This document shows, in pieces, positions 3,927-16,581 of a DNA stretch of 64,000 nt. How positions within the stretch are numbered: the stretch's first letter is position 1; the number at the start of each line of letters is the position of its first letter. Source of the stretch: Escherichia virus TH58; sequence record MT446423.1; one strand, written 5' to 3'. A program made the position numbers and the translations under genes. Below the pieces are notes generated by a model that had not been told where the DNA came from, searched no databases, and saw nothing but the letters and a program-made list of their open reading frames with translations.

Positions 3927-4190
3927 ATGAAAACTTTCAACGAATTCATCTCAGAATCGTCTGGTGTGAAAATTAACAAAGCGGTTAATCAGGTTATTGC
4001 TGATATTCTTAATTTGTATAACATTGACTTAACTCCGCATATCACGCTTGGTAACAAACGAAACTTTTTTATATTTGACACATCCGAACTTGATGAAAAC
4101 CAGTTCAATAACATTCAACGTTTTGCGAATGATAAAGGTCTTCGACACGAGCCTGGCGGCTATAAAAAATACGCAATATATTTGAAATAA
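3927..4190 (+). CDS. Internal-protein-like ORF with capsid targeting sequence (IPI position)
   Basis: Starts MKTFNEFISE, matching the T4 IP capsid targeting signature MKTYQEFIAE; sits at the ipI position between 57B and the tRNAs. Confidence 0.55.
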   Translation: MKTFNEFISESSGVKINKAVNQVIADILNLYNIDLTPHITLGNKRNFFIFDTSELDENQFNNIQRFANDKGLRHEPGGYKKYAIYLK

Positions 4191-4192
4191 AG

Positions 4193-4222
4193 GTATACAA
4201 ACCTATAGGGATATGTTATAGT
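4193..4222 (+). promoter_or_regulatory. Early promoter variant (GTATAC -35, TATAGT -10) with flanking inverted repeat
   Basis: Motif ...GGGATATGTTATAGTAGTCCTATC, shared with several other intergenic sites. Confidence 0.45.
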
Positions 4223-4259
4223 AGTCCTATCAAAACAAATGAGTAAATGGAGAAATAAA

Positions 4260-4445
4260 ATGAAACGCGCTGAACTGATTCGTAATGTTGCTGTAGTAAT
4301 TGCTTCAGTAGCTTTTAGTTTTTCGATGTTTGTAGGATTCATTTGTGGACTACTGACAACAACAGAAAATTCTATCTCATTGGTAGTAGCATTTCTAATC
4401 GGCTTAATCGCTATCGTTATGGATAAAATTGCAAAAGGTGAGTAA
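4260..4445 (+). CDS. Small membrane protein
   Basis: ATG 4260 with GGAG RBS; hydrophobic stretch VAVVIASVAFSFSMFVGFICGLL. Confidence 0.45.
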   Translation: MKRAELIRNVAVVIASVAFSFSMFVGFICGLLTTTENSISLVVAFLIGLIAIVMDKIAKGE

Positions 4446-4446
4446 A

Positions 4447-4809
4447 ATGAAATATCATGTATATGCGGATTTTGAAGCAAATCCTTCTAAAGACCCTGAT
4501 TGTCGTTTGATACGCGAACCATTTGATTCAGCAGCTCAAGCATGGGCTTGGATTAAATCTAAATCGCCTGGTTATATGTTCTTTGAAGTAGTCGATGACA
4601 ATGGTACACTGCATCCAGAACCTACAGAAACTATTAATTTCCTTCTGTTTGCTGGTTACGACTGTTATCCTCTTGGTGGTATTGACGACCTTGTTGCTAC
4701 AGGAAAAACCGTTGAGGCTCTTCGCGAAATTTATAAAAACGCAGAAGAAAATTTTGACTGGTATCATATTGTTGATGCTCACACCTTTGAAGTGGTGGAA
4801 CACTCATGA
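4447..4809 (+). CDS. Hypothetical protein
   Basis: ATG 4447 after AAGGTGAG; 120 aa. Confidence 0.55.
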   Translation: MKYHVYADFEANPSKDPDCRLIREPFDSAAQAWAWIKSKSPGYMFFEVVDDNGTLHPEPTETINFLLFAGYDCYPLGGIDDLVATGKTVEALREIYKNAEENFDWYHIVDAHTFEVVEHS

Positions 4810-5096
4810 TTCTTTATGCTAAAGTAAAATCTGTTGAGAATGGATATGAAAGCGATCGACGTGCAGCTAAAGCACTAGTCGATGACTATGGTATTTTGAC
4901 CCACTTTGAGGTTGAAAAGGTTTACGTCGACCGTTCATCTTCACAGGTTAAATTACTTTGGGAAGACCGCAAATTTAATAGTGTGAACTTTGATTTCTTT
5001 ATTGAAACAGAAAAAGGCCCTCTTGAATATGATATTTTCAAGAATCCTTTGAAATTACGTTGCATTGAATATAATTACATTAATATGGTACGGTGA
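4806..5096 (+). CDS. Hypothetical protein
   Basis: Start overlaps upstream stop (ATGA coupling); 96 aa. Confidence 0.5.
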   Translation: MILYAKVKSVENGYESDRRAAKALVDDYGILTHFEVEKVYVDRSSSQVKLLWEDRKFNSVNFDFFIETEKGPLEYDIFKNPLKLRCIEYNYINMVR

Positions 5097-5100
5097 GTAA

Positions 5101-5616
5101 ATGAATATTTGTTTAGGCAGTACAATTCCTAAAGGTTACGTAATTGATGTCACTACTTGGGAAAATGATGGCGACAATTATAAAACCAAAACATTATTTG
5201 GTGTAGAAGAGCATGAGCTCCAACAGTTTAAATATCTCTTGAAGAAATTTAAGAGTCGCCATTCTAGCACTAAAGCTGAACGTTACTGTGGTAATACACC
5301 ATTCAGTGATTGCTCGCTTTTAATCTATGAATACTTGGTTGAAGGACTGTTCTCAGACCAGCTTTATCCAGAATTCATTAAAAAGGTCTTTGATATTGAA
5401 GTCGACCTCGGTAATAAATCTGAAGAAGACGAATCACGTGTATTTGACCTGTTCCGTGAGAATGGATATTTGGTATCAGAAGGTCTCACTGATATTCTTG
5501 GCCATGCTTCTGAATATTATGATTATGATTTCTTGCGTGTAGTTGAACGTGTTGAATTCGCTTATATTGAAGAAGAAATTGTTTTGCCGACTGTTAAAAT
5601 GATTGATTTGCTTTAA
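5101..5616 (+). CDS. Hypothetical acidic protein
   Basis: 171 aa ORF in the operon frame series. Confidence 0.55.
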   Translation: MNICLGSTIPKGYVIDVTTWENDGDNYKTKTLFGVEEHELQQFKYLLKKFKSRHSSTKAERYCGNTPFSDCSLLIYEYLVEGLFSDQLYPEFIKKVFDIEVDLGNKSEEDESRVFDLFRENGYLVSEGLTDILGHASEYYDYDFLRVVERVEFAYIEEEIVLPTVKMIDLL

Positions 5617-5695
5617 GAATTATGTGTTATTATTAATTCATACCCTCTATTACCAAAGGTGCTCTAAAGTGCCTTTCATAATAGAAAGTTATTTA

Positions 5696-5769
5696 GGCCC
5701 TGTAGCTCAATGGTTAGCAGCAGTCCCCTCATAAGGGAAAGGTTACCAGTTCGAATCTGGTCTGGGCCA
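5696..5769 (+). tRNA. tRNA with CAU anticodon (Met or Ile-type)
   Basis: Hand-folded cloverleaf: acceptor GGCCCTG/CTGGGCC (one T-T mismatch), T-arm ACCAG-TTCGAATC-TGGT, anticodon loop CTCATAA; no encoded CCA. Confidence 0.65.
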
Positions 5770-5775
5770 TATATT

Positions 5776-5852
5776 CGAGGCATAGCTCAATTGTATAGAG
5801 CAACGGACTTCTAATCCGTAGGTTGAAGGTTAGAATCCTTCTGTCTCGACCA
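5776..5852 (+). tRNA. tRNA-Arg (anticodon UCU)
   Basis: Acceptor CGAGGCA/TGTCTCG, D-arm GCTC...GAGC, anticodon stem ACGGA/TCCGT with loop CTTCTAA, T-arm GAAGG-TTAGAAT-CCTTC, encoded CCA. Confidence 0.8.
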
Positions 5853-5870
5853 ACTTCAAATGAGGAAAAT

Positions 5871-14835: not shown

Positions 14836-15113
14836 AAACATATAGTGAATTTTTATCAGAATCTATTCTTAACGAAGCTACTGACACATTTGCAACTAAG
14901 CTAGGTGCAGCTTTGGTTGAAGCTGAAAGTCTATTAGCACGTATTTCTGAACTTGCTAGTAAGATAGATACTCGCAAATTTGAGCGCACCAGTGATATCG
15001 TTAAGCTTGAAGCCTTGTTGCGTATGTGCGATAAACCGGAAGAAATCGCTAAGAACGGCTCGCTGATGAAACAACGTCTTGAAAAATATATTTCAGGCGC
15101 TTCAGAAAAATAG
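14832..15113 (+). CDS. Internal-protein-like ORF with capsid targeting sequence
   Basis: Starts [11 protein letters not shown]; 93 aa; ATGA overlap with e stop. Confidence 0.5.
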
Positions 15114-15114
15114 T

Positions 15115-15144
15115 GTTTACTTCCTCCAAGGACTTTGATACTAT
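15115..15144 (+). promoter_or_regulatory. Early promoter upstream of denV
   Basis: GTTTAC 15115-15120, TACTAT about 18 nt downstream. Confidence 0.45.
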
Positions 15145-15171
15145 ACATTCATCAACTACTTGGAGGAAATT

Positions 15172-15585
15172 ATGACTCGTATCAATTTAACACTTGTTTC
15201 TGAACTGTCCGACCAACATCTTATGGCTGAGTATCGTGAATTACCACGCGTATTTGGTGCAGTCCGTAAACATGTTCAAAACGGTAAATGTGTAAAGGAT
15301 TTTAAAATCTCCCCGACATTTATCTTAGGCACAGGTCATGTAACATTCTTTTACGACAAACTCGAATTTTTACGTTTACGTCAAATCGAGCTAATCGCTG
15401 AATGCTTGAAACGTGGTTTCAAAATCAAGGACACGACTGTCCAAGATATTTCCGACATCCCTGCCGAATTTCGTAATAATTATGTCCCGACCGAAGCGTC
15501 CATTGCGATAAGTCAAGCTCGTTTAGATGAAAAAATTGCTCAACGTCCTACTTGGTACAAATACTATGGTAAATCAATTTACTAA
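15172..15585 (+). CDS. denV: Endonuclease V (pyrimidine dimer DNA glycosylase)
   Basis: [34 protein letters not shown]... matches T4 endonuclease V; 137 aa. Confidence 0.9.
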
Positions 15586-15616
15586 GGAAAAAGGTTGCGA
15601 TGGTAAAGCTTAAACA

Positions 15617-15646
15617 GTTTACGCTTAAGTATTAATATGGTATAAT
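15617..15646 (+). promoter_or_regulatory. Early promoter (GTTTAC, TATAAT)
   Basis: GTTTAC 15617-15622, 18-nt spacer, TATAAT 15641-15646. Confidence 0.55.
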
Positions 15647-15676
15647 TACTCTATCAAAACAAACAAGGAAACAAAA

Positions 15677-15979
15677 ATGAAAACATATCAAGAATTTATT
15701 ACTGAAGCGCGAGTGAGTGCAGGTAAATTAGAAGCCGCTATAAATAAAAAGGCCTATTCATTTCACGATTTGTCCGATAAAGACCGTAAGAAACTTGTAA
15801 GCCTTTATATTGACAAAGAGCGTATTCTCGCTCTTCCTGGCGCTAATGAAGGTAAACAGGCCAAGCCTTTGAATGCTGTCGAAAAGAAAATTGATAACTT
15901 TGCTTCTAAATTCGGTATGTCTATGGATGACCTTCAGCAAGCGGCTATCGAAGCAGCTAAAGTAATTAAAGGTAAATAA
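15677..15979 (+). CDS. ipII: Internal protein II-like
   Basis: Starts MKTYQEFITEA (capsid targeting sequence); 100 aa as T4 IPII; follows denV. Confidence 0.65.
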   Translation: MKTYQEFITEARVSAGKLEAAINKKAYSFHDLSDKDRKKLVSLYIDKERILALPGANEGKQAKPLNAVEKKIDNFASKFGMSMDDLQQAAIEAAKVIKGK

Positions 15980-16061
15980 CAGTTTACTTTCTCCTAGAAT
16001 TGTGATAGTATATTCATAATTACTTGGATGGGTAAAATGACTCAATGAAAAAATTTTAATG

Positions 16062-16100
16062 AAGCCACACTGGTATAAGTATTACGGCAAAAATATTTAC
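16062..16100 (+). pseudogene. Remnant of a denV-like 3' end
   Basis: Encodes KPHWYKYYGKNIY, similar to the denV C-terminus [12 protein letters not shown]; no upstream coding body. Confidence 0.3.
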
Positions 16101-16153
16101 ATTCAAATAACATGGGAACAACCTGGACCTCATGATTCTATGAGGGATTCCCG

Positions 16154-16250
16154 CCAACCTGTAATAAGGTCGAGCCCAAGTGCGGTAATGGGTAAATACA
16201 GAAATGGACAATTCATGTGCCATGGAATGGCCCAAACCTAGAGAGAACAA
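16154..16250 (+). repeat. Copy A of a roughly 100 bp intergenic direct repeat
   Basis: Blocks CCAACCTGTAATAAGGTCGAGC..TGCGGTAATGGGT and ATGTGCCAYGGAATGGCCCAAACCT shared with 16651-16750. Confidence 0.6.
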
Positions 16251-16251
16251 A

Positions 16252-16581
16252 ATGAAAACATATCAAGAGTTTATCACTGAAGTTACATTATCTGCGGAAC
16301 AGAAAGCTGCTATCGAAGAAGCTAAAAATCCCAAAGTAACATATAAAGTAAATAGTAAAGGCGTTTTTGATGACTTGGTTCAAGACCCTGAATTGAAAAA
16401 AGCTCTTTCTAAAACTAATGCGTACTTTGCTCCTAAATTTAACACAGCCGGCGTACTTATTGGATTGGATGTATTCAACTCTAAAGGTGTTCTATCTAGT
16501 GCCTTTGGTTATGCCGCTAACAAAATTACCAAAGCCGCATGGGAATCCAATACCAAACAAGCTCAAAAGCCTAGAGTATAA
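16252..16581 (+). CDS. Internal-protein-like ORF with capsid targeting sequence (ipIII position)
   Basis: Starts MKTYQEFITEV; 109 aa. Confidence 0.55.
   Translation: MKTYQEFITEVTLSAEQKAAIEEAKNPKVTYKVNSKGVFDDLVQDPELKKALSKTNAYFAPKFNTAGVLIGLDVFNSKGVLSSAFGYAANKITKAAWESNTKQAQKPRV

Follow-up and report, generated by a model that had tools for sequence, protein, structure and literature searches.

Five genes with predicted capsid-targeting leaders and unrelated cargos in Escherichia virus TH58, including two families not labelled as internal proteins

Five leader-bearing genes in the window

The window analysed here is a stretch of 64,000 nucleotides of Escherichia virus TH58 (record MT446423.1), in which five open reading frames (ORFs) are likely to encode T4-type internal proteins (Ips), each composed of a capsid targeting sequence (CTS) of ten residues and an unrelated small cargo, which would be injected and would most probably block nucleases. 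By translating the whole 64 kb in six frames, the motif MK(T/S)(Y/F)xEF(I/L)(T/S)E was located at the start of exactly five ORFs, all on the plus strand, at 3927-4190, 6597-7061, 14832-15113, 15677-15979 and 16252-16581; these genes are referred to below by their start positions. The scan reproduces exactly the set that an initial annotation of this DNA had listed. Shuffling the window 200 times never produced the strict motif, which is also absent from all internal positions in the window itself. When all six frames are searched with the relaxed form M[KR]x[YFW]x[EQNDK][FY], the same five ORFs are recovered and no others. A GGAA-type ribosome-binding site lies 7-10 nt 5' of each of the five ATGs. 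In-frame ATG or GTG codons are also present upstream of the 3927 and 16252 starts, and the start choice at these two genes is inferred. Gene callers sometimes pick such upstream starts, as in the 'MEPK' extension on RB69 ipI, and the leader is then hidden.

The initial annotation had also read these N-termini as T4-type CTSs, and this reading agrees with mutational data. In mutants of the IPIII leader, targeting depends on residues 4 (aromatic) and 7 (Phe), and processing depends on residues 8 (Ile/Leu) and 10 (Glu) (PMC9026906). All five leaders contain Tyr/Phe4, Phe7, Ile/Leu8 and Glu10, so that every experimentally defined CTS position is occupied by the appropriate residue. The genomic setting is likewise that of a T-even phage. 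With a coverage above 90%, the stretch 3000-17500 is 94-95% identical to genomes of the genus Mosigvirus (such as phage SF, Shf125875 and ATK47), and by this comparison the window is that of a Mosigvirus, an RB69-like T-even coliphage. Its gene order is that of RB69: gene 1, 57A, 57B, the ipI locus, trna.4-trna.2, tRNA-Met and tRNA-Arg, a variable block, nudE, e, denV and vs.8. Four of the five genes (3927, 14832, 15677 and 16252) are located at the classical variable Ip loci, that is, between 57B and trna.4 or in the e/denV region.

The leader as a conserved peptide signal

When the cargos were compared pairwise with the first 12 residues removed, no mutual similarity among the five was detected at E<0.05. 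A weak full-length similarity among the proteins of 16252, 15677 (IpII, see below) and 6597 was considered and rejected, since it was gone once the leader was removed. At the DNA level, a repeat finder grouped the leader-coding sequences into one direct-repeat family, comprising the five genes and one weak match (68%) at 12463. The leader codons vary synonymously among these copies (TTC/TTT, TAC/TAT, GAA/GAG, ATT/ATC and TTG/TTA) and the residues are kept, which implies that the peptide is conserved, beyond the DNA alone. A role of the leaders as functional T4-type signals for capsid targeting and cleavage is well supported at the level of sequence.

In general, the predicted mature proteins are small, from 77 to 144 residues, and four of the five are basic, with pI values of 9.0-9.7. 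Three of the five proteins belong to PHROG families named internal head or virion protein. Searches of Pfam and NCBIfam gave no meaningful match for any of the five. With the leader removed, no protein of the window is similar to T4 IPI or IPIII at E<0.05; homologues of IPIII are present in mogra and Bas45.

Two families not labelled as internal proteins

Two of the five genes are candidate internal protein genes to which the sampled databases give no such label. The initial annotation had singled out 6597 and 14832 as the two extra members of the set. This holds for 6597; the 14832 family already bears the label 'internal head protein', and the other unlabelled gene is 16252.

The 6597 gene (6597-7061, +) belongs to phrog_2280 ('unknown function') and encodes a protein of 154 residues with the leader MKSYAEFLTE and a predicted mature form of 144 residues (pI 9.7). 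Homologues are found in 511 phage records, and all 40 rows sampled across the ranking are hypothetical, unannotated or without a feature. Family members that are 48-55% identical still begin with MLKFNEFLAE, MLEYSEFLKE...CE or MKFKEFLIE, with [YF]xEFLxE kept. The AlphaFold model of the protein is all-helical and consists of two modules (mean predicted local distance difference test score, pLDDT, 76), and the first residues are of low confidence and lie outside the fold.

The 6597 locus lies directly 3' of the stable-RNA genes and apart from the classical Ip loci. At this site RB69 carries another leader-bearing ORF, ORF149c; the T4 annotation has no such gene at this site, and the blastn alignment of 6216-6596 with T4 ends at 6549. 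A G+C-rich hairpin plus T-run occurs on either side of the gene: the first copy forms the end of the rnaC/rnaD homologue (6523-6549, +), and the second (89%) closes the cassette (7068-7094, +). The sequence AATAAATA (6560-6567, +), 37 nt 5' of the 6597 ATG, matches the T4 late-promoter box TATAAATA at 7 of 8 positions, and a perfect TATAAATA is present at the same position in the Tequatrovirus and Jiaodavirus orthologues, whose flanks have otherwise diverged. Together with the start of 14832, whose ATG and the e (lysozyme) stop codon overlap as ATGA, the late box before the 6597 orthologues implies that the expression signals suit a head protein. By its sequence, 6597 marks an additional cassette site with a putative late promoter of its own, which is new. 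An early-promoter element after 6597 (7127-7179) is repeated after 14832 (15114-15169). On the 5' side, the 334-nt non-coding stretch 6216-6549 shows 89% identity to rnaD and rnaC, the stable RNAs of T4 known as species 2 and 1. Compared with its shuffles, this stretch has the better fold (z = -4.3), and it matches no Rfam family at the gathering score.

The second unlabelled gene, 16252 (16252-16581, +), is the orthologue of RB69ORF123c and belongs to phrog_3966 ('unknown function'). Its protein has 109 residues with the leader MKTYQEFITE and a predicted mature form of 99 residues (pI 9.6). Homologues are found in 90 phage records; 34 of the 40 sampled rows read 'hypothetical', and the remaining ones lack an annotation or a feature. 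Gene callers often lengthen this gene by 16-21 codons, which gives versions of 125 and 130 residues, and the absence of an internal-protein label is probably due in part to this upstream extension, which hides the leader. In the comparison with the Dhakavirus orthologue ESCO10_184, 8 of 10 leader residues and 32 of 96 cargo residues (33%) are identical. AlphaFold gives a small alpha/beta model (mean pLDDT 78; predicted template modelling score, pTM, 0.67), and here too the first residues are of low confidence and lie outside the fold. The vs.8 leader sequence flanks the gene in two copies: the first (~95 nt; 16154-16247, +) is directly 5' of 16252, and the second (16651-16748, +) is 5' of vs.8 and closes the cassette.

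One sampled row, that of the Dhakavirus orthologue of 16252, bears the label 'RNA polymerase ADP-ribosylase', which was set aside as unreliable, the labels of small ORFs in that record being equally implausible. Within positions 1-6336 of the ESCO10 record, ORFs of 72 to 138 residues are named 'DNA ligase', 'RNA polymerase ADP-ribosylase' and 'baseplate tail tube cap protein'. The denV homologue in this record is labelled 'hypothetical protein', and both 'ADP-ribosylase' ORFs are leader-bearing proteins of the Ip type.

For the 6597 and 16252 proteins, a sequence search against PDB chains found no match below E=0.3, and a Foldseek search of their AlphaFold models against the PDB likewise found no match below E=0.3 and gave no functional clue. 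Deep homologue searches returned tiny families for both, confined to T4-like enterobacterial phages, and yielded no distant relatives that would be informative.

The Ip9-, Ip5- and IpII-type genes

The initial annotation implied that 3927, 15677 and 16252 correspond to the T4 proteins IPI to IPIII. By sequence comparison, 15677 is IpII, and it is the sole orthologue of a T4 internal protein in the window; 3927 belongs to the Ip9 family, and 16252 is unlike IPIII. The Ip5 and Ip9 numbering used here follows GenBank annotations.

The 15677 gene (15677-15979, +) matches phrog_7857 with E=1e-54 over 100 of 100 positions. It encodes 100 residues with the leader MKTYQEFITE and a predicted mature protein of 90 residues (pI 9.6), and the protein is 92% identical to T4 IpII with the first 12 residues left out; the DNA is 93% identical to T4 ipII. 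A close homologue of this protein, in which two of 100 residues differ by reading of both sequences, is present in the virions of a Klebsiella T4-like phage, for which spectra from purified virions are given in the supplement of PMC13119998. The leader tryptic peptide TYKEFITEAR is absent from all 26 spectrum rows of this homologue, and the peptide that follows it appears in one. Similarly, a second leader-bearing protein of the same virion set has 66 rows, none with the leader peptide and three with the next one. This peptide pattern is consistent with removal of the leader. No comparable virion peptide data were found for the other four families.

The surroundings of 15677 resemble T4 in a patchwork manner. 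A sigma-70 (early-type) promoter-like site, TTTACG-17-TATAAT with TG, precedes the gene (15618-15646, +). The gene is followed by a homologue (83%) of the T4 e-ipIII intergenic region with a GTTTAC...TAGTAT promoter-like sequence (15982-16063, +), which is a possible promoter for the 16252 gene. Next comes a segment encoding KPHWYKYYGKNIY (16059-16113, +), an apparent relic of the 3' end of a Tequatrovirus-type denV, recognised by the resemblance of the peptide and by its position beside the T4-like spacer; in a DNA alignment of this segment to the window's own denV, no extended match was found. The following positions, 16114-16245, are a T4-like denV-vs.8 spacer with 96% identity to T4. The patchwork at 15665-16245 indicates, as far as can be read from these alignments, that the IpII segment was imported from a Tequatrovirus-type gene order, and the relic points to a subsequent deletion of most of this denV.

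The 3927 gene (3927-4190, +) lies between 57B and trna.4, the classical ipI locus, and matches phrog_7673 'internal head protein' (E=7e-49). Its product has 87 residues with the leader MKTFNEFISE and a predicted mature form of 77 residues (pI 9.0), and is ~72% identical to the annotated ip9 of RB32/VR7. A sigma-70 (T4 early-type) promoter-like site, TTTACA-17-TACTAT with TG, is located 5' of the gene (3863-3891, +), within the repeated promoter element 3856-3907. The Ip9 cargo, which spans residues 16-87 of the 3927 product, is also found leaderless: as a stand-alone protein of 72 residues in an unrelated 44.5-kb phage (58% identity), and as the C-terminus of a Kuttervirus protein of ~950 residues (32% identity). 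The presence of this cargo without a leader elsewhere shows a modular architecture of leader plus cargo, and its occurrence in these two other settings suggests a mobile module to which the T-even phages added a leader.

The 14832 gene (14832-15113, +) is orthologous to RB69ORF127c and is an Ip5-like internal protein gene; its product falls in phrog_3499 ('internal head protein') with E=1e-46. The protein has 93 residues, with 83 in the predicted mature form (pI 6.3), and is 47-51% identical to ip5 of T2/PP01. Its family is labelled 'internal head protein' in PHROGs and in part of the GenBank/RefSeq records.

Repeat-bounded cassettes

All five genes are flanked by repeated regulatory elements, which may be a promoter, a terminator or a leader sequence. 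The five genes could accordingly be pictured as exchangeable cassettes, each bounded by short repeats and starting with the conserved 30 bp that encode the leader; such exchange would explain why relatives carry different gene sets at the same loci.

In the wider region, a repeated early-promoter family (GTTTACA...TATGTTATAGTAGTCCTATCAAA) precedes several small variable genes, at 3856-3907 (the element before 3927), 4187-4238, 10800-10851, 12095-12146 and 15635-15671. This family recalls the promoter/stem-loop elements called 'PeSL' in the titles of PMC2839356 and PMC4122927, by which modules are proposed to be shuffled in T4-type phages. Between e.3 and e.2, at 10005-10801, three consecutive ORFs of ~65-103 residues end alike (...WVSSSALC, ...WIASSHTC and ...WVSSSYSC), which suggests a tandemly duplicated family of small proteins.

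Leader-bearing genes in relatives and in environmental sequences

The initial annotation had described the five genes as an expanded set relative to the three of T4. This description does not fit the relatives, which carry about 6 to 7 such genes. Leader scans gave 6 in Shf125875 (including an IPI-type gene), 7 in mogra, ~7 in RB69 and 3 in T4, and phage SF has 6 by annotation and homology. Across the few genomes scanned, ~13 unrelated cargo families were distinguished. PMC12373910 traces Ip polymorphism to Repoila et al. 1994, by which time 'at least 10' Ip types were already reported.

By scanning a viral metagenome collection with a degenerate DNA pattern for the leader, at least 120 loci were obtained. 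Among the matches listed, 115 of 122 peptide matches stand at ORF starts, and these 115 leader ORFs fall into 59 unrelated cargo clusters with lengths of 42 to 590 residues. The commonest environmental form of the leader among the matches listed is MK(S/T)FxQF(I/L)xE. Position 11, which the pattern leaves unconstrained, is Ser or Ala in 80 of the 115 environmental leader ORFs listed. Homologues of window ORFs (E<1e-8) are also encoded at 36 of the 120 listed loci, the most frequent being probably gp41, UvsX and gp43, as judged by length and position. The leader thus appears, from these sequences, to be used far beyond the coliphages. As a separate observation, a putative HxGH-type nucleotidyltransferase-like motif is present in some environmental N-terminal regions, for example ...GRYNPPTIGHEKL (locus L030) and ...GRFNPPTVGHEKL (locus L099).

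Proposed function and alternative explanations

By transferring the T4 scheme to the five genes, a course of events may be proposed. The leader would give the protein affinity for the scaffolding core, and the protein would be built into the prohead. The prohead protease gp21 would then cleave after Glu10 of (I/L)-x-E, and the freed cargo would remain with the packaged DNA. At infection, the cargo would enter the cell before any phage gene is expressed. Finally, each cargo would most probably block one host nuclease that attacks DNA with sugar-modified cytosine, a Type IV enzyme of the GmrSD/BrxU or McrBC type. In this scheme packaging, cleavage, injection and the anti-restriction role are argued from the work on T4.

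An anti-defence role for injected internal proteins is the current mainstream view, and by analogy it may be extended to the genes of the window. T4 Ip1, Ip2 and Ip3 each inhibit one GmrSD-type variant without cross-protection, and they have no mutual homology past the leader (PMC12373910). IPIII is required for infecting ECOR17, and host-expressed IPIII is active in leaderless form (eLife paper). In addition, Bas37_0260, a leader-bearing protein from the ipI locus of Bas37, inhibits McrBC (preprint 10.1101/2025.11.20.689424). The cytosines of Mosigvirus DNA are arabinosylated, and the DNA of one Mosigvirus tested is cut by the GmrSD-family enzyme BrxU (PMC13390438). Inhibition of Type IV restriction is likely for 15677, for which direct homology to IpII speaks, and, on the analogy with the T4 proteins, it is likely for 3927, 6597, 14832 and 16252 as well. 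Because the cytosines here would be arabinosylated and not glucosylated, the relevant enzyme variants may differ from those of T4 Ip2.

A structural or physicochemical role, in which the packaged proteins mainly neutralise charge or aid packaging or ejection and are not specific anti-defence factors, would suit the basic pI (9.0-9.7) of four of the five predicted mature proteins, and T4 heads hold ~1000 internal protein molecules, whose lysines touch the DNA phosphates (PMC3012670). Yet unrelated cargos that are freely swapped between close relatives fit a generic role poorly, 14832 is acidic to neutral, and for each of the three T4 internal proteins a specific restriction target is known (PMC12373910); taken together, we regard such a role as the main function as unlikely. 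Another explanation concerns 6597, 16252 or both: their leader could be a by-product of cassette recombination, with the conserved 5' 30 bp and the elements before it serving as a crossover and expression module and the protein made de novo in the cell and never packaged. The bracketing of all five genes by repeats would agree with this, as would the nature of the leader DNA, itself a dispersed repeat, the broken ORF123c and ORF127c leaders that RB69 tolerates, and the Ip9 cargo, which functions somewhere without a leader. Nevertheless, the synonymous changes and conserved residues point to selection on the peptide, the leader including Glu10 is kept in orthologues whose cargos are only 33-55% identical, and the prevalence of Ser or Ala at position 11 in the environmental leader ORFs listed (80 of 115) is as expected of a protease site. 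It is therefore very unlikely that the leaders of 6597 and 16252 arose in this way.

Several observations weigh against assigning all five genes to the injected internal proteins. The leaders of the RB69 reference are damaged: ORF123c, the 16252 orthologue (1450-1779, minus strand), carries E10A, and ORF127c, the 14832 orthologue (2923-3204, minus strand), begins MKTYMNFYQN, a one-base deletion and a compensating insertion having scrambled residues 5-12 (MKTYMNFYQNLS). Such broken leaders imply that the leader is dispensable for viability and that a cargo might act without being packaged; they may represent packaging signals in decay or errors of old sequencing. Packaging, cleavage and injection would, in four of the five families, follow from the work on T4. 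Peptides of the 6597 family were not found in the searchable portion of one virion mass spectrometry data set, a result that says little. The genes for the gp21 protease and the scaffold are outside the window; PMC9026906 counts gp21 and gp22 among the core genes of the T4-related phages. The 14832 protein, with its pI of 6.3, is not basic as the other four are. Finally, the 6597 and 16252 proteins match no known inhibitor or solved fold, so that any target proposed for them would be conjecture.

Based on the results presented above, the assignment of the five genes as T4-type internal proteins is retained as likely. A more far-reaching proposal is advanced tentatively: the 6597 and 16252 families may be unrecognised injected effectors, the 6597 site may be a third Ip locus formed by a late-promoter cassette with alternative cargos (ORF149c in RB69), and the targets could lie beyond the GmrSD variants of Ip1-3. 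The class of leader-bearing internal proteins is already well known, and the concept is unchanged by the present analysis. What is new, besides the additional cassette site, is that two widespread 'hypothetical' families, phrog_2280 and phrog_3966, bear what by its residues is a canonical and conserved leader. Injected internal proteins are the first phage molecules that face host immunity, and, as work since 2025 has shown, all three T4 proteins and a further one of a T4 relative inhibit modification-dependent restriction enzymes with high specificity. These inhibitors make each new leader family a ready candidate inhibitor and a probe for the defence system that it blocks. Flagging the 6597 and 16252 families helps annotation and the choice of genes for testing, and it bears on the host range of T-even phages.

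Comparison with known systems

The virion-packaged Dar proteins of P1 and the ejection proteins of SPN3US/phiKZ, whose propeptides are cut off by a protease, offer a parallel at the level of strategy, since they are delivered with the DNA and some are processed by a prohead protease (PMC12810830, PMC5694885). They differ in that they use other targeting signals, are much larger and are not homologous to the proteins described here. Bas37_0260 is alike in being a leader protein, distinct from Ip1-3, that inhibits Type IV restriction; it was compared with the five proteins by description only. The Ip9 proteins of RB32/VR7 share ~72% identity with the 3927 product, and the Ip5 of T2 and relatives is encoded at the ipI locus, whereas 14832 is placed directly after the lysozyme gene; no published function was found for either family.

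T4 Ip1 (IPI*, a GmrSD inhibitor) and Ip3 share with the genes of the window the same packaging logic and the same neighbourhoods (57B-trna.4 and e-denV). However, neither has an orthologue in the window: an Ip9-family gene occupies the ipI locus, and 16252 is not related to IPIII. The propeptide of T4 IPI is also longer, with 19 residues. T4 Ip2, which inhibits the GmrSD/BrxU-type Type IV enzyme of ECOR21 (Silas et al. 2025, PMC12373910), has a direct counterpart in 15677, with the same length and leader type, 92% identity past residue 12 and a position adjoining denV. On the other hand, the gene order around denV is rearranged in the window relative to T4, and an apparent relic of a T4-type denV end accompanies the IpII gene.

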